Part shown: piece by piece, positions 22,001 through 60,417 of the stretch | How the letters are laid out: every line of letters begins with the position of its first letter | How positions within the stretch are numbered: position 1 is the stretch's first letter | IMG/VR virus record: IMGVR_UViG_3300009156_000026 | Coordinates: 37,734 to 101,733 of that record | DNA length: 64,000 nucleotides | Reading direction: 5' to 3' (one strand) | DNA from: a virus | Notes under the pieces: generated by a model | Databases searched by the model: none | What the model saw: only the letters and a program-made list of their open reading frames with translations | Told to the model about the DNA's origin: nothing | Position numbers and translations under genes: made by a program

Positions 22001-25000
22001 CAGCATCTGCTTGGCTTCGGGGAGATGCCGACCCTCGATGCGCGGGCCTTGAACACCTGGATCACGGGTCAGGGCGACATCCGAGGGATGGACACCGAGG
22101 CCGCCCAGATCGCCCGGCTGATGAACCAGCACTACGCGGCCGACGCGACGGGGATCCTGACATTAGCCCGGATCATCAGCGGCTACAACCAGCTTCGCCG
22201 CTCCGGGTTCGCCCCCGACATCCCGAAGGCCGTCTACAACGCGGTCCTGCACAACTGGCTCTGGACCCGCATCAAGGGCCATGAGCGCACCTACGCCCCG
22301 ATGTACGAGGCCCAGGCAGCCCCGGTCGAGCCCATCCCCCAGACCGAGTGGTCGCGCGACGACTTCGAGACCCGCAACCAGATGATGGAATCCTGGATGC
22401 GCGACCCGTACGAGGCCGAGGATCGCGAGCTCGGGCCGTACGATCCCGATGCCCGCGAGGGCCCGTCCGCCATGGCGGCCGAGATCCCCTCGATCCCAGC
22501 CTACCTGCGAGAGCACGCCGTCCCGTTCGCTGGCTACGAGCCGAACACGATCGAGGGGCGGATGGAGCAGGTGCTGATGGACGCGGCCCGCGCCCAGGGC
22601 ACCAACCGACCGCAGTTCGAGAAGGGCGAGCTCGGCAAGCTTGAGCCGAAGTTCCTGCCCAGCCCGACCGCCACCAAGGTCGAGATCAAGAAGAACCCGG
22701 ACGGCACCAACAAGAAGGACAAGAAGGGCAAGGACGTCTGGGTCGAGAGCAACTACGGGGTAACGCCAGCCCTGGAAGATCAGCGGGTGGCGCTCCAGCT
22801 TGGGCGGCCGGCCTCGCGCTGGTACACCGAGCTTGCCCACTGGGTCTACGAGCGGGTCGGGCCCGAGGCGTTCGACGAGTTCCGCGTGATCTTCGGGGTG
22901 ACCTCCGCCCAGACCGAGCCGACCGAGAACATGGCGACGACGTTCGCCGCGATGAAGATCGCCCGCGAGATGGCGGCCGAGGGGATCCTCGACGACGCCC
23001 ACCGCGACGAGTTCCACGCGCGGATGAAGGCGTACCGGATCCCCAGCGTCAGTGAGGGGGTGGCCAACGTCGAGAAGGACGGCACCCCGAAGATGGTCGG
23101 CTTCCGGACCTACACCGAGGGCAAGGGCAAGCAGATCATGGACCTCTACACCACGGGGTCCGTGACGGTGCAGACGAACGCCAAGACCCCGTCCTACGCT
23201 GGCAACATGATCTCGGCCCTGATGGGCGTCTACGACCCGAACGTGACGGTCGACGTCTGGATGGCGCGGGCCATGAACTACTGGTCGACATCCTGGATGG
23301 CGACCTCGGATCAGGCGTACCGCGCATCGCACGCGATCTACAACTGGCTCGCGCGCGAGGAGGGCATCAGCCCGCACGAGGCCCAGGCCGCGATCTGGTT
23401 CCCGATCAAGACCGCCTGGGAGCGGGGCGGAACGGCGATCCGCCAGAAGATCCAGGATGGCGATCTGGCTGACGCGCTCCGAGACGCCGAGCAGGCTGGC
23501 CTGCTGCGCCCCGAGCTCATCCGTGGCGACCTCGCCGCGATCAACGCCGACGCCCGGGTCCAGCACGCCTGGGAGCAGCTTGCGCCCGTGATCGCCTCGT
23601 CTCCGCTCTCGCCAGGGCAGGCCGAGGCCGGCGTCACCGACATCGTCTACCCAGGCCAGACCAGAGGCCGAGGCGAGACCAAGGAGCCAGCCCGCCCGGT
23701 CGATCGGGCCCAGCGGGCGGCACTCCTGGACGTGGCCGAGGGACAGGCGCCGACGGTCGGGATCGTGGGGGTCCCTGACCGCGCCGCCCTCGGCTACGCC
23801 AACGGCCAGCTTGACTGGCTCGGCCAGCCGCATCAGGTGGTCCCGATCGGGGACGGGCTGATGGTCCGTCTGGTGGGCGGCAACCTCGACACCGCCCGCT
23901 ACGTCGCGGCCGAGCTTGGTGAGCGCGCCGGCGCCCCAGCGGTCTCGCTCCAGCTTGCCTCGACAGAAGGCAACGCGCTCGGCTACGTCTTCTCGTCCTC
24001 GGGGGAGGAGCCGATCGAGAAGGCCGATCTGGAGGCGATCTCGGCGCTGGTCGCGGGGACCGGCATCCCGCTGGTGGCAGATCCCGGCGGCCACTACGTG
24101 GCCCTGATTGACTCGCCGTCGGTACCCGAGGAGATCTATAATTCGACGGTCGACGCGATCGCCAACCTGGGGATCGCGGGACTTGAACAGGAGGGTTACC
24201 GTGGCTGGGCAGAGCATCTCCCTGCGGCCGAGTATCGAGGAACGATTCAAGCGCTTGGGCATCGGTTCGGCGCCGGCGAGCCACAAGATCTACCAGTCGG
24301 GGCCGCAGGTGGTGATCGTGCTGCCGAAGAAGGCGGAGCCGAAGCCCAAGGAGTAGGCCCGTCGGCCATGGGCGCGGAAGCTCCCTGGGCCGAGGGCTGG
24401 TCCCAGCCGACCCCCGAGGAGTTCCTGCGGATCCGCTCCCAGAGCGATCGCGGGGCGTACCTGTCGGCCTCGGACGTCGACAGTCTCAGGGGCAAGCGGC
24501 TCTTCGTCAAGCCGACCGACACGGGTGGCTACGCCGGGTTCGCGCTCGACGAGGACAACGACCTCCAGAACGTGTTCAACGTCCCGGGCCCTGACGGCCG
24601 GAAGTCGAAGGGGGCCGGGGTCGACGCGATGCTGATGGGGATCAGCCAGGGCGCCGACAAGCTGGACGCCTTCGACCCGTTCCTGCCGAAGTATTACCAT
24701 CAGTTCGGGTTCCGCGAGACGGGCCGCGTGCCGTTCAACGACGAGTACGCGCCCGAGGGCTGGGACTACGCCAATGGCCGCCCCGACGTGGTCCTGATGA
24801 CCTGGGACGGCTTCCACAACGGAGAGAGCCCCGATGACGTCCGCGCCAGGGTCGGAGGACCCAAGACCGAGTGGATCGCCCAGCCTCACGCCCGAACCTT
24901 CGACGACTGGGACCAAGCAGCGGAGGTACGCGACGGACGACTCGCTGACCTCCGAGGAGGTGCAGTTCCTGGACGAGTGCGTCCCGTTGCTGGGCCAGGA

Positions 25001-28000
25001 CGTGGTGGACCGGCAGTACGGCCTGATACTGGACCAGGGGCGGCAGGTCGGGGAGATCTAGCCGGGCCATCAGCCATGGTCGGACGTGAGGCGGCTATCA
25101 CCACTGGCGTCCCGCTTGACCTGCCGACCCGCCGTGGCTTCTTGCAGGCGGTAGAGAATACAGACGGCGCCCAGATCACACCCGACGGCCTCTCGGTCGA
25201 TCTGATCCGCTGGCAGCAGCCCGAGCAGGTTGGCGCCGAGGCTGGCCAGTCCGCCGTCTTCTACCTCGCTTCCGGCACGCACGCGCGGGACGTCGACACC
25301 TATCGCGGCACCTTCCTGGGCGACTATGGCGGCGACCAGCGGATCGCCGGGCCGTCGGTCTTTCGTCGGCCGTTCGTGGCGCGGGCGGGCGTGGGTGACG
25401 CTGCCATCGCGGCCTACGCTGCGCTCAATGGCCAGGAGGCCACCGATGCGATGCGCGGCCCGGTGGGTCGGCTCGGGGGCTTCCCGCGTCTCAGCCGCGA
25501 CGAGGTAGTCGCGCGTACCCGCGATATCTTGACCCGTCACGATGCCGGCCCAGAAGCCGCCGAGCAGATCGTGGACGCCTACCGCCTGGGTGCTCCGTTG
25601 GAGAACGCGGTCGAGGAGCGGATCGTCTCCCACGACTTGCGCCGCCGTGGGTACGACTCGGTCATCGGCTACAGCGGGGTCGGCCGCAACGCGCGCTTGA
25701 CCGAACTGATGGATGTGCGGGAGCGGACCTACCCTGATGAGACGGGGCAGACCGAACTGCACCCGCAGTTCGGTCCTGGCCCCTCGGCCATGGCGGCCGA
25801 GATCCCAGGCTGGGTACCCGTCAGCGGGATGCCGGACGACCTGCACCAAAGAGTCCTGTCGGGCAGCCCCCGGCTCCAGGCGGTCGCGGCCGAGAGCACC
25901 GCGACCTTGCAGGAAGCCCTGATGGAGGCGCTGGACTCGGACCCGCTGATGACCGACGCGGACCGTCAGGTCCTGCACGGCCACGCCAGCTTCTACACCT
26001 CCGCGATCGTCGGGCTCGCGACAGAAGATCCCGCCCGCCTGGAGGCGGTCGGGCTTGACTACGCATCGGCGGAGCTCGAGCGAGATCGGGCGATCGGGCA
26101 CCTCGAACGGATCGGACGGCTCGACGCGCTCTACAACGCCGAGGCCGCCTGGGCGAGCCTGTCCCCCCGTGACGATCCGAGCCAGGGCCGACCATCCGCC
26201 ATGGCCGGCGAGGTCCCGGTCACGCTGGCCGAGCCGTTCTACTCCAGGCTGACCCAGGTCGCAGGCGCGTTGCCCGAGATGATCGAGGGCAACCCGGGGC
26301 GGCTGGTAAGAGACAAGGCCCGCCCGGAGCGGGTCGTCAGAAGGGCGGCCCAGAACCCGAACCGCGAGGAGCCGCCGCCCGAGCGCGGCTGGATCATGGC
26401 CGAGGACGGAAGCTGGATCGAGCCGGCCCGTGAGGGGTCCGAGCGGATGGTCGAGGTGACCACGGGCGCCCAGGAGACCATGCGGCGACTCCGCGAGGCC
26501 GGGGCCAAGCCGGACGAGCTCGCCTGGACGGGCGTCGAGACGTGGCTGCGCGACCAGGGCGACGGCCCCATCGACCGGGCCGCGCTGATGGACCACCTCT
26601 CCCAGCGGCGCATTGTCGTCGAGGAGATGGTGCTCGGCGGGCGCGAGATCGGGCAGATCCACGTCTACCAGGACGGCCCCGAGGAGATCGTCGAGCAGGA
26701 GCCGTACGAGGTCGAGGAGGGGTACGAGGACGACGAGGGCAACTACGTCGAGCCGGAGTACCTGTACGACGACGAGTCCGAGCCGGAGTACCGCTACACC
26801 TTCCGGGCGGCCCCCGAGGAGAACGAGCTTGGCGACGAGCTCGTCTACGAGGCGACGGGCAACGACGACCAGGGCTACTGGGTCACCACGGTCGACGGCG
26901 AGCCGATCGGCAACGACCCCGTCGATGACCTGGAACGCGTCGAGCGGGCGATCGGGGACCACGCCCGCCTGCGGCTGGAGGAGCCGCTGCCCGAGGGCGT
27001 GGCCGGGCCCGTCCAGTTCGAGTGGGAGCCCGGGGATCCGTCCGCCCCGCTGGTCCAGCCCGGCGGCGAGGAGTACCGGGAGGTGCTGCTCATCCTGCCG
27101 TGGCGGGGCCGCGAGGAGCTCGCGCTCTTCGAGCAGGCGGCCGATCGCGCGTCCGATGCCTACCACGCGTTCACGGCCGACCACTCCTACGAGGAGCGGG
27201 TCGACGACCTCGACCTGCGCCGACAGTCTCTCGAGCTCCTGGATGCGGCCAACCGAGCCCGTGCAGAGCTCGACGCCAAGCGCGTGGAAGTCGAGCGCCA
27301 GCGGTACACCGGCAGCCACTTCACGCAGCCCGGGTCCTACAACCCGGTCGAGAACGTCGCGGTGCATGTCCGCATGACCACGCGGATCGGCCCCAACGGT
27401 GAGCGGCGGGTGTTCATCGAGGAGATCCAGTCGGACTGGCAGCAGCAGGGCCGCGAGAAGGGGTTCATGCCGAAGTCGGGCCTGCCGAAGGGGTACGCCG
27501 TCGAGTTTCGCCCGCCCTCGCGGATCGACCCCACCCAGGCAACCCGGATCGGTGGCCGCTTCGACAATGCGTCTGGTCGCTACGTGGACGAGACCGTCCT
27601 GGAGCCCGGCACCCCCGAGCACGCCCGCCAGATGCGGTCCTACTCGAAGTGGTACGCCGTGACGCCCGACGAGGCGGCCCGCGACGACGCGGCGTTCGAC
27701 AGCGAGGCGGAGGCGCGGACGTACCTGGAGCGCCAGATCGCCAAGGACAACCCGCCGCCCGAGTTTCCGTTCATGCGGACCGAAAGCTGGGCGACCCTGG
27801 CGTTCCGACGGATGATCCGCTGGGCCGCAGAACACGGCTACGACCAGATCGCCTGGACCACGGGCGCCCAGCAGAACGACCGCTACGGCCCCAGGCGGAT
27901 CAAGAACCCCGAGGCGCTGCCGAAGTTCTACGACGGGGTGCTGGTCACCGTCGCGACCGACCTCGGCAAGCCGTGGGGGGTCGCTCCCACCAGGAGCCAG

Positions 28001-57980: not shown

Positions 57981-58526
57981 CTACATATCGTCCAGGATGT
58001 CGTCGAGCACGTCCCCGACCACCGCGTCGTCCGGCAGCGGCGCCAGCTTCCGCTCGGCAAGCTCGAAGAACCGCTTGTGCAGCGCCGAGTCGACCTCGCG
58101 CCCTCGGTACATCTCACGGACCAGTTGGACGTCCTTCTTGTTGAGGTCCTCGACTCTGAGCCAGAGACCCTCGCGATCGGGGCTGACGGGCAGGCCGTAC
58201 TGGTCGACCTCGCCATCGGCTGCGCCGTGCTCGACGCAGAAGATCCGTCGCAGCCGCAGCTTCTCGCCGGACTGCCCGATCAGCAGCCAGCGTCGGTTCT
58301 TGAAGCTGGACTGGACGTAGTAGTACAGCCCCTGGTCGAGGATCTGGCCGACCCGTTTGCGGTAGGCGGGCTGGAACATGTCGTTCGGCTCTGACGGCAG
58401 CCGCGCGTACTTGGCGAGCTCCTTCTGGGCGGCCTTGGTCTTGATGCCGTGCCGCCACGCCCCGGCCTCGACGCGGGTGATCAGTCGCTCCATCGCCGGC
58501 TTGTAGTCGCCGTAGTCCCGCCGCAC
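57981..58526 (-). CDS. hypothetical protein downstream of the Cas7-like gene (181 aa); C-terminal domain similar to 59815-60417
   Basis: GGGAGG RBS plus GTG; shared L.K..V.L...R...RFF...L...VGD pattern. Confidence 0.8.
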   Translation of the reverse strand: MRRDYGDYKPAMERLITRVEAGAWRHGIKTKAAQKELAKYARLPSEPNDMFQPAYRKRVGQILDQGLYYYVQSSFKNRRWLLIGQSGEKLRLRRIFCVEHGAADGEVDQYGLPVSPDREGLWLRVEDLNKKDVQLVREMYRGREVDSALHKRFFELAERKLAPLPDDAVVGDVLDDILDDM

Positions 58527-58594: not shown

Positions 58595-59581
58595 TTAGCG
58601 ACGCCGTCTCATGGTCATGGGCGAGCCACCCCGCTGGTGGGTACCCCGGGTTGGGTCAAGGATCGGAGACGCCTCCGTGTCGATGGGTGCGCGGGCCCGC
58701 GCCGTCGTCGGAGCGAGGCGCTGCACGGGTGCGCCCGTGCCGTTGGACGACGGGCTGGTCGGCGGGGTCGGGACCCGTGAGGTGGTCTCCTCGATCACGC
58801 GATCGAACGTCGCCGCGTCGATCTTCTCCCAGCGCCGCATGAAGAAGCGCCCGAAGTCCTGGCTGCGCTTGGCGCCGAGCCCGTGCTGCTGGGCGTACCG
58901 CCAGAGGTCGATCCACTTGTCGTGCCCCAGGCGGTCTCGGAGCGCCATCACCACGAACGTCACGGTCGGCCGCTCGGAATACTCGTAGTACCCGAGCGCC
59001 GAGCGGGGGCCCTGCGGGCCGACGACGTGCTGGACCGACAGGTCGATGCCGGTCGGCTCGCTCATCCCGAGCGGGATGTTCAAGGGCTCGATCGAGATCG
59101 TCTCGATCAGGTACGACCTGGGGGACTTGCCTCGGGTCTGCTTGGTCTCGCCCGTCTTCTTGTCGGTGGTGGTCTTGCCGCCCCAGCCGATGTTGTCCCA
59201 CGGCCAGAGGATGTTGCACGACTCGCGCAGCATCGCCTTGACCTGCCGCGACTCGATGTAGATGCCGAAGCGGGGGTCGCGCTTGAAGACGGTCGTCTGG
59301 GACTTGGCGGCGATCGCCTCGGCCGCCTCGCGCAGGCTCTTGAAGGTCCGCTCCTCGCCGGGGAAGAGCTCGTCGACATCGACCCCGATCTCCTTGAGGG
59401 TGGTCAGGCCGAGGTCGTAGATCTCCTGCTGGCGGGAGACCCCCAGGTTGCGCATCAGCCACTGCTCGATGAGGCGTGCGTCCGAGGGGATGCCAGCGAC
59501 GAGGCGGTCGCGAAACTCCAGGGTGGCGACGTAGTACGAGAAGAGCTCCGACGGCTGGTCGTCAAAGATACCGCGCTGCAT
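58595..59581 (-). CDS. stand-alone Cas7/RAMP-like protein (328 aa), VIPR-like effector candidate
   Basis: AAGGAG RBS then ATG at 59581; RRM beta1 ATLEFRDRLVAGIP; IYIESRQVKAMLRE (cf. Cas7/Csm3 YIPGSSLKG.LR); beta-hairpin thumb QHVVGPQGPRSALGYYE; C-terminal Gly-rich loop GLGAKRSQDFGRF. Confidence 0.8.
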   Translation of the reverse strand: MQRGIFDDQPSELFSYYVATLEFRDRLVAGIPSDARLIEQWLMRNLGVSRQQEIYDLGLTTLKEIGVDVDELFPGEERTFKSLREAAEAIAAKSQTTVFKRDPRFGIYIESRQVKAMLRESCNILWPWDNIGWGGKTTTDKKTGETKQTRGKSPRSYLIETISIEPLNIPLGMSEPTGIDLSVQHVVGPQGPRSALGYYEYSERPTVTFVVMALRDRLGHDKWIDLWRYAQQHGLGAKRSQDFGRFFMRRWEKIDAATFDRVIEETTSRVPTPPTSPSSNGTGAPVQRLAPTTARARAPIDTEASPILDPTRGTHQRGGSPMTMRRRR

Positions 59582-59593
59582 GATCGGCTCCTT

Positions 59594-59814
59594 GGACTGG
59601 TCGGGGCTGGCCCGGGAGGATTGAGGGTGTACCGGCCCGGCCTGTCGAGGTGGCATGGCGAGGGGTGGCCGAGTCTGTCTTGGCTGGGGGGGTCGGCGTG
59701 GTCCGGCTCGGCTGGGGTGGGGCAGGGGCAGCCTGGAACGATGCGGTCCGACCTGGAACGTCGCTCGGGCGAGGGCGGCGGCGTGACGCGGCGACACGAG
59801 GTGGCATGTGGTCC
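59594..59814 (+). repeat. 5-nt periodic GG-anchored array (candidate guide-RNA array) in the leader of the Cas7-like gene
   Basis: On the + strand, 29 of 45 in-phase units start with GG (GGACT GGTCG GGGCT GGCCC ... GGCGT GGTCC GGCTC GGCTG GGGTG GGGCA ...); three phase blocks each offset by a 3-nt unit; CGAGGTGGCATG occurs at 59646 and 59797. Confidence 0.75.
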
Positions 59815-60417
59815 TCAGCCTGCAACCTGCTGAGCGCCGTCGTCGCCGTCCTGCTGCGGCGGGATCGGCTGGTTGGCGCAGATCGCCTGGAACATCTCCT
59901 CCAGGCGGTCGGCACTGTGGCGGTCCCCGATCTGCTCGCCGGCCTGCATGATCGTGTCACACTCGCGGAGCAGCCTGATGCGGCGCTCCTCGGCGTCCCG
60001 ACGCGTCATCCGCGCGGCGATCGCCAGCGGGATCTGCTCCTTGGTCAGCGCCATCAGCTTGACGTGGCGGCCGTCGACGTACTCGGTGTGGTTGAGCCAG
60101 CGCAGGCGGTTCTGCTGGCCCAGCCGGCCTCGCCGCATCTGCTCGCGGATCGACCAGGGCGCAGGTGACGGCGGGGCCGCCGCAGCCGTCGCTGCGGCCT
60201 TGGCCTGCTGGGATCGGAGCCGCTGGCGGCCGAGCACCTGCATCCCTTCGCTGTAGACCAGGGTGTACAGCGTCTCGGTCACGTAGGCGTCCAGGAGCAG
60301 CTTGTCGGCTCGGATGTCGGCCGTGATGTCGGCCGCGATGCCCGGTAAGGTGAAGTCGTCAAGCGGCTCGAAGCGGTCCTCGAACCGCTTGCTGATAAGC
60401 TGCCGGGTCGTGGTCAC
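59815..60417 (-). CDS. hypothetical protein upstream of the array (200 aa); C-terminal domain similar to 57981-58526
   Basis: GAGGAGG RBS plus GTG; stop codon abuts the pentamer array. Confidence 0.8.
   Translation of the reverse strand: MTTTRQLISKRFEDRFEPLDDFTLPGIAADITADIRADKLLLDAYVTETLYTLVYSEGMQVLGRQRLRSQQAKAAATAAAAPPSPAPWSIREQMRRGRLGQQNRLRWLNHTEYVDGRHVKLMALTKEQIPLAIAARMTRRDAEERRIRLLRECDTIMQAGEQIGDRHSADRLEEMFQAICANQPIPPQQDGDDGAQQVAG

Follow-up and report, generated by a model that had tools for sequence, protein, structure and literature searches.

The element studied here lies in a 108,690-bp virus genome (IMG/VR) with a GC content of 70%, and the DNA runs containing this virus are rhizosphere metagenomes. 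Unless stated otherwise, coordinates refer to the window, i.e. the whole stretch of 64,000 nucleotides of this genome that was analysed. Three genes follow each other on the − strand: a conserved 200-aa gene (59815..60417, stop codon 59815-59817), a 328-aa gene (58595..59581), and a 181-aa gene (57981..58526) oriented in the same operon direction. The 328-aa gene, which encodes a minimal RAMP with the G-loop GLGAKRSQDFGRF and is named vipr for reasons given below, is present as a single copy in the genome. By direct reading of the − strand, its ATG (59581-59579) is preceded by the RBS AAGGAG (59593-59588), and 232 nt separate its start from the upstream gene. None of the three local proteins has a match in Pfam, PHROGs, or PADLOC. 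The 200-aa protein, for which there is likewise no informative Atlas match and no recognisable fold or family, is a candidate accessory (vap-like) gene product; by tblastn, its gene precedes vipr in seven related loci (L030-33 with 37-50% identity, L010-12 with 23-25%), where the two genes are separated by an array. The 181-aa gene was not found in the related loci by tblastn. In the closest relatives, L030 (5759-5977), L031, and L032, an extra 72-aa gene lies between array and vipr, and the array abuts the RBS of this gene, not that of vipr.

Frame analysis indicates that the GC3 coding signal ends at ~59580 and returns at ~59815; 59582-59814 is therefore non-coding. Read upstream from its ATG, the vipr frame stays open over 72 codons, as far as a GTG at 59797, and a 400-aa version of the gene starting there (58595-59797, −) was rejected because this extension carries no GC3 coding signal. 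For the same reason, gene callers may over-extend the vipr gene. By our estimate, long open frames running through arrays are compatible with the unit structure of the latter. A 362-aa gene called on the G strand over the array of locus L033 looks spurious, like the 400-aa extension of vipr.

The sequence was segmented by a Viterbi procedure using a five-state unit model (G, G, Y-biased, N, N), in which slips are permitted at a cost. This identifies in the gap a single + strand segment (59594-59760) scoring 34.1, whereas the remaining + strand segments of the 108,690-bp genome score ≤9.5. Genome-wide and on both strands, all other segments score ≤10.9, except for a distal array described below. 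Shuffled versions of the gap score 7.6±2.0 (maximum 16.8), with none of 1000 dinucleotide-preserving shuffles reaching 34.1, and vipr's own (−) strand of the gap scores only 5.0 under the identical model. As a positive control, the same scan applied to Escherichia phage SUSP1 (KT454805.2) recovers the published vrRNAs, one upstream and three downstream of the two VIPR genes, all on the strand of these genes. The autocorrelation of G in the gap peaks at lag 5 (z 3.7) and lag 10 (z 4.45). Tandem Repeats Finder detected nothing in the gap, and the period-5 Fourier amplitude of GG was not discriminating, with many coding regions as high as the gap. The earlier note, made on the window alone, had described a pentamer array with its GG phase antisense to the gene, and the above scores confirm it. 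In full, the phased GGNNN array (59594-59812, +) spans from the vipr RBS to the stop of the upstream gene. Its first GG, at 59594, is adjacent to the RBS and 12 nt from the ATG, precisely as had been read before, and the CC-anchored units that had been listed for the − strand are the exact reverse complement of 59690-59717. A search of the phage's own genome also returned a 28-nt stretch of the window (43531-43558, −) with 89% identity to a part of the leader array (59582-59609).

The array is divided into modules, all on the + strand. Module 1 (59594-59643) has 10 units, of which 9/10 begin with a G and 8/10 have a G as second base; it is followed by a GTC (59644-59646), which forms the first +3 slip. 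Module 2 (59647-59691) has nine units and is followed by a second GTC (59692-59694) and +3 slip. Module 3 (59695-59759) has 13 units and is followed by a third GTC (59760-59762). A decayed module 4 (59763-59812) continues for 10 units in the same phase and ends, with no closing GTC, 2 nt short of the upstream gene's stop codon; it has a G at unit position 1 in 10/10 and at position 2 in 3/10. GG is retained in 23 of the 32 units of modules 1-3. The Viterbi path places two 3-nt slips at GGT (59649-51) and GGG (59687-89), in agreement with the earlier note, which had seen the phase change through these units. Both can equally be read as the GTC spacer of the family instead: GGT gives the same downstream phase as the first GTC, and GGG is an alternative placing of the second. 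The G-run-plus-GTC boundary seen at 59687-94 is present twice in the closest relative, L030, whose first module shows 89% identity over 36 nt (59612-59647) to the gene-proximal half of module 1.

Both pairs of repeats that had been pointed out are present. The 12-mer CGAGGTGGCATG occurs exactly at 59646 and 59797, the second copy (59797-59808) lying in decayed module 4, and looks like the start of module 2 recurring there. A direct repeat of this length arises in 2.1% of gap shuffles, and the repeat is therefore only modestly significant (p about 0.02). The two copies of CCTGGAACG, at 59732 and 59752, are both in module 3, four units apart and in phase. Slips and repeats had been proposed to mark the boundaries of guide units. 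This holds for the slips, because modules across the family are closed by a short slip, with the refinement that GTC can be read instead of GGT and GGG. Growth of the array by duplication, which had also been proposed, is supported by internal duplications in relatives, such as the repeated modules in L030.

An AlphaFold2 model of the 328-aa protein (pLDDT 74.7) was compared with known and predicted structures using Foldseek. In AFDB, the entries A0A1F4YLN4, A0A2D6XG06, X1U2U4, A0A0F9A1L0, and A0A661D0E2 were found at ranks 1, 2, 3, 5, and 8, with E values from 1e-12 to 5e-6. According to the methods of the preprint that defined VIPR (bioRxiv 10.64898/2026.04.26.720920), these are the five founding Vipr proteins. 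Because they are the top AFDB fold matches, we assign the gene to Vipr and the locus to a VIPR system. In line with a Vipr, the predicted structure has one RRM core together with a thumb and a glycine-rich loop. The PDB search points to Cas7-type RAMPs, with subunits of Cmr, Csm3, and type VII Cas7 as the best fold matches (E about 1e-7), and the matches to Vipr entries in AFDB outrank those to any Cas protein. The gene had been called Cas7-like, for which Vipr is the better name. A profile search of the PDB gave only weak matches to the G-loop of Csm4/Cas5. With 2144 clusters at 50% identity (E≤1e-3), this is a large family. Invariant motifs among the homologues are ESRQVKAMLRE and H..GP.GPRS, together with the glycine-rich loop GLGA.RSQ.FGRF, and the invariant residues of the G-loop are G234, G236, R239, S240, G244, and F246.

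VIPR is a CRISPR-like DNA silencer described in 2026 (bioRxiv 10.64898/2026.04.26.720920). In the model published there, the guide RNA consists of 5-nt units and is covered by Vipr protomers, which hide the fixed GGY and present the NN bases; the latter pair with double-stranded DNA, with every third base skipped. Functionally, such a system is recognised by an array giving rise to RNAs of about 100 nt that co-purify with Vipr. At the sequence level, a VIPR array consists of at least four tandem 5-nt units, with fixed Gs and variable bases, in non-coding DNA flanking vipr. The gap at 59594-59812 holds 32 such units and 10 decayed ones; it is a VIPR guide-RNA array, an already known kind of element. 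The unit types given in the available text of the preprint (GGY/NN, NNNGG, YNNNG, and NNNNG) are all G-anchored, and there sRNA-seq confirmed only the ribozyme-interspersed and single-vrRNA architectures.

The closest published counterpart, as far as described in the preprint, is the "staggered" vrRNA form of VIPR (bioRxiv 10.64898/2026.04.26.720920, fig. S18). Shared features are a lone minimal RAMP and a phage host, as well as long non-coding tracts on the flanks, built of 5-nt units with fixed Gs, in which guides follow head to tail without a tail element. The staggered form has no CRISPR array, and Rfam gave no CRISPR-DR match in the window. The array studied here differs in having GGNNN units without a pyrimidine at position 3, a 3-nt GTC spacer, and one array 72 kb from the gene; in addition, its G strand is always opposite to vipr and flanking genes, an orientation on which the available preprint text makes no statement. 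The experimentally validated type II VIPR of SUSP1 likewise combines a Vipr with pentamer arrays upstream and downstream, and by the published mechanism one protomer covers each 5-nt unit. The G-loops of the two proteins can be aligned (...G.G..R..FGRF), with a weak profile match, although overall sequence similarity is marginal (hhalign probability 2.5%). In SUSP1, vrRNAs are on the same strand as vipr, whereas here the G strand is antisense. They contain 12-16 GGT-rich units (T at position 3 in >80%), have a structured 3′ tail, and are preceded by a sigma-70-like promoter, in contrast to the short modules without a tail found here. SUSP1 Vipr reads both guanines base-specifically through D177 and W178, residues that are not conserved (GVGDWR in SUSP1, GLGAKR here) but replaced by A and K.

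Two further systems are similar in part. Class 1 Cas7 backbones (Csm3, Cmr4, and type VII Cas7) share the RRM core, G-rich loop, thumb, and the logic of a periodic protein-RNA filament (Foldseek E about 1e-7). Unlike in class 1 CRISPR-Cas, there are no 25-40-nt repeats at the gap and no Rfam CRISPR-DR in the window, the period is 5 and not 6, and the fold is nearer to Vipr. The arrays of the Evo-PIN survey (bioRxiv 10.64898/2026.10.21.760802) also have a period of 5, with fixed parts other than GGY, and are found beside Vipr-like folds. Their motifs, as given in the available text, are GAC, CAC, WGT, and TGH with NN, and that text mentions neither CC- or GG-only units nor antisense placement.

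The orientation of arrays was examined in 25 viral loci, five with near relatives, and 80 metagenome loci, each oriented so that the homologue is on the + strand; 101 loci remained after removal of duplicates. At a score ≥12, 89 arrays are antisense (−) and three are sense (+), the latter scoring 12-19. At a score ≥25, the GG phase is antisense to vipr in 69 arrays and sense in none. The earlier note had made its case depend on conservation of orientation and periodicity in relatives, and with these 69 strong antisense arrays both are conserved. Antisense placement holds from 70% down to 24% protein identity, at GC contents of 44-72%, for arrays upstream as well as downstream of vipr, and in an isolate, Microcystis phage Mae-JY09. 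Matching array grammar is found beside homologues in 80 or more independent loci. Antisense placement is the fixed design of this whole Vipr family, in contrast to SUSP1, and not a peculiarity of this phage. Arrays also lie close to the genes: the distance is 0 nt to the RBS in the window, with a median of 59 nt to the protein match for 33 upstream arrays, and the arrays of L023 and Mae-JY09 begin 4-11 nt after the vipr stop. The Mae-JY09 locus (L116, PP395641.1 37713-38845) encodes a homologue with 34% identity and has an antisense array 11 nt past the stop, with a 12-bp palindromic hairpin beyond; its GC content of 73% is odd for a Microcystis phage.

Family arrays are chains of modules, most often of 6-8 units, each closed by a short slip. 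A length of 3 nt accounts for 63% of 915 slips, and the sequence GTC for 41%. Under an unbiased model (4546 units from 61 loci), the pyrimidine fraction at unit position 3 is 0.59, with values of 0.55 and 0.63 for positions 4 and 5, respectively. The base fractions at position 3 of the units in this genome are 0.375 C, 0.305 G, 0.16 A, and 0.16 T. A pyrimidine bias at position 3, considered as a clue to the polarity of the G strand, was rejected since it vanishes under the unbiased model. Because position 3 is not pyrimidine-enriched, the unit is GGNNN and not GGY, which fits the alternative "NNNGG" form of the preprint. In low-GC relatives, the boundary words on the G strand are longer and conserved: GTCAATTATG (L023:4646-4922), GTTGCAAA (L020:4845-5169), and GTCGATGAC (L021:4668-4780), which share a GTC/GTT start and are possible processing or capping sites. 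Array content varies between close relatives. L033, L034, and L035 encode an identical Vipr protein (P0007), yet their arrays differ, with no exact module and only about two near-identical modules in common between L033 and L035, and array content therefore turns over faster than the protein. Such hypervariable modules are expected of guide arrays. Hairpins were noticed at two related loci. In L025 (1367-1960), ATGGCCATGGCCAT forms the basis of perfect palindromic hairpins at three places, within the array and at its far end. In L020 (4790-4830), a hairpin lies between the stop codon of vipr and the array. Its stem is completely paired on the sense RNA (with two G-U pairs), whereas it has two C-A mismatches on the G-strand RNA, a hint from this single locus that the sense strand carries the structure.

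A second, much longer GGNNN array is present in the same genome outside the window, 72 kb away from vipr. It covers 1534 nt (genome 23253-24786, corresponding to L117:3254-4787), scores 130.1, and consists of about 30 modules, mostly of eight units plus GTC, which gives a 43-nt period. We consider it to be probably the main guide array of the phage. Its G strand is the − strand, i.e. the strand of vipr, and its flanking genes, which end at 23284 and resume around 24850-25164, are on the + strand, so that this array too is antisense to its own local genes. The genome thus combines a single vipr gene with two arrays that lie on opposite DNA strands yet follow one GG...GTC grammar.

Elements that could assign the guide to one strand were sought in several ways. 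Scans for promoters and terminators on both strands of the window, L074, L103, and L023 gave counts inside the shuffle range. A census of both ends of 70 arrays on both strands found almost no canonical U-tailed terminators, and more hairpins on the G strand (47 versus 33), a difference that is not significant. A terminator candidate in L047 proved on inspection not to be one. Rfam matched no family in the 64-kb window, CRISPR-DR models included, and in the window plus 18 related loci it found no ribozyme and no CRISPR-DR but only one tRNA, and thus no strand-specific RNA element by which the guide strand could be called. In RNA folding, 198 of 200 shuffles are more structured than the sense leader. 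There is no structured 3′ tail at the window array, where folds are weaker than those of shuffles. Run X11, labelled cDNA but probably DNA, contained a single 242-nt contig inside the vipr gene and nothing on the array. Candidate targets were searched by comparing the 33 modules of this genome with the genome itself and related loci (about 400 kb of phage DNA), allowing skips of 0-3, and nothing exceeded shuffled guides; the skip-3 scan returned only the self match. Four exact 1-nt-skip scans of IMG/VR, with modules 1 and 3 in two parses each and no mismatches tolerated, gave 0 hits.

We favour the view, with a probability of roughly 55%, that the gap element is the VIPR guide array of the adjacent vipr gene and that its G-rich strand serves as guide. 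It is built like the vrRNA arrays of the "staggered" type, with GGNNN modules arranged head to tail and no tail element. There are three intact modules (10, 9, and 13 units) and a decayed fourth. Each intact module is closed by the 3-nt GTC spacer, which breaks the 5-nt register and so sets off one guide, perhaps through processing at this point. The functional RNA would most likely be a rightward transcript, antisense to the vipr operon. Vipr would line this guide with a protomer on each unit, so that GG is held back and the variable bases are exposed, and rival DNA would then be silenced through the gapped code of the published model. The G strand is favoured because all published VIPR types are G-anchored and SUSP1 Vipr reads both guanines base-specifically, and because one Vipr has to serve arrays of the same grammar on both DNA strands. 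Other observations point in the opposite direction. Since the 5′ end of the array on the G strand touches the vipr RBS, a rightward promoter would have to sit within the vipr coding sequence, and no promoter position is conserved, the array of L030 abutting the RBS of a different gene and those of L023 and Mae-JY09 lying 4-11 nt past the vipr stop. The uniform antisense orientation, which extends to both arrays of this genome, is more simply explained by a guide carried on the operon transcript. Promoter-like and terminator-like sites, which were found on neither strand, the replacement of the residues that read G1 and G2, the lack of a pyrimidine bias at position 3, and the failure of the above scans to find a 1-nt-skip target also count against this view.

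The opposite choice of strand is possible, although we hold it to be clearly the less probable one. The element would be the same VIPR array, with the guide being a C-rich sense RNA cut from the operon mRNA (upstream gene, array, and vipr), in which a CC-containing triplet is sequestered (units 5′-VCC-NN-3′). If so, and this is an equally tentative proposal, this large Vipr family (>2000 clusters) may use a second, complementary code, read by a G-loop without guanine-reading residues. A Vipr filament on the leader would then reach the RBS and could autoregulate vipr or couple guide loading to its translation. This would account for the C-rich strand being on the gene strand in 69/69 strong family arrays, for both arrays of this genome being sense-C relative to their own flanking genes, and for arrays filling gaps between co-directional genes edge to edge (0 nt to the RBS here, a median of 59 nt for 33 upstream arrays). 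It would also agree with the layout of SUSP1, where vrRNAs run in the operon's direction. The replacement of the guanine-reading residues of SUSP1 Vipr and the low structure of the sense leader speak for it as well. A strong palindromic hairpin past gene and array, 33 nt from the array in Mae-JY09 and 14 nt in L025, resembles an operon terminator. Triplet specificity does change, since fixed triplets GAC, CAC, WGT, and TGH have been reported beside Vipr-like folds, in arrays that are not GGY (bioRxiv 10.64898/2026.10.21.760802). Nevertheless, no VIPR type described in the available preprint text has a C-anchored unit, and it would be a coincidence if specificity had switched to precisely what is complementary to the canonical GG. 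Long, C-rich, unstructured, and untranslated RNA is a classic Rho loading site, so a C-rich sense leader would tend to terminate the operon.

We regard it as unlikely that the leader array is a decaying remnant, with working guides coming from the distal array and the tract being a mere leader of the vipr mRNA, perhaps regulatory. The gap is short (232 nt, compared with 633 nt for the homologous gap in L030 and about 1150 nt in L033), its module sizes of 10, 9, and 13 are irregular relative to the family mode of 6-8, and there is no room for a promoter on the G strand. Most units of the fourth module no longer have the second G, and in the module common to this array and L030, G has been replaced by A/T three times at GG positions. 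Against decay of the array as a whole, it scores as high per base (34/167) as the L030 array (69/364) and higher than the distal array (130/1534), GG is kept in 23/32 units, and all three GTC boundaries are intact. Even less credible, to the point of being very improbable, is a tract with no RNA-guided role at all, whether a compositional or DNA-structural feature (G-quadruplex-prone DNA, phased DNA, or an origin with iterons), a protein-titrating RNA of the CsrB/TRAP-site type, or a product of chance. The G runs of the + strand, the additional period-10 signal, and the failure of a plain Fourier measure to separate the tract from coding DNA would be compatible with such a role, but the score is above that of all 1000 shuffles, the same grammar recurs beside homologues of the same protein in at least 80 independent loci spanning 44-72% GC, the protein fold is that of Vipr, and the method recovers the validated vrRNAs of SUSP1. 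G-quadruplexes or curved DNA, an origin with iterons, and a CsrA/TRAP-type titrating RNA were rejected on this comparative evidence.

VIPR was discovered only months ago, and what is established about its code comes from G-anchored guides that are co-directional with the protein gene. Here, in a very large branch of Vipr, the G strand of every strong array runs against the surrounding genes, often without room for a promoter. The GTC spacer grammar provides a simple rule for splitting arrays into single guides in the search for targets, and the isolate Mae-JY09, which has the same design, offers a cultured handle. We consider that the points worth carrying forward are the family-wide antisense, edge-to-edge placement of arrays, the choice of guide strand that results from it, and the large distal array. 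If the G strand is the guide, this branch would possess a dedicated programme of antisense guide transcription, with consequences for the expression of vipr and its neighbours. If instead the C-anchored reading is true, it would have a new recognition code, which would widen the programmability of these systems.
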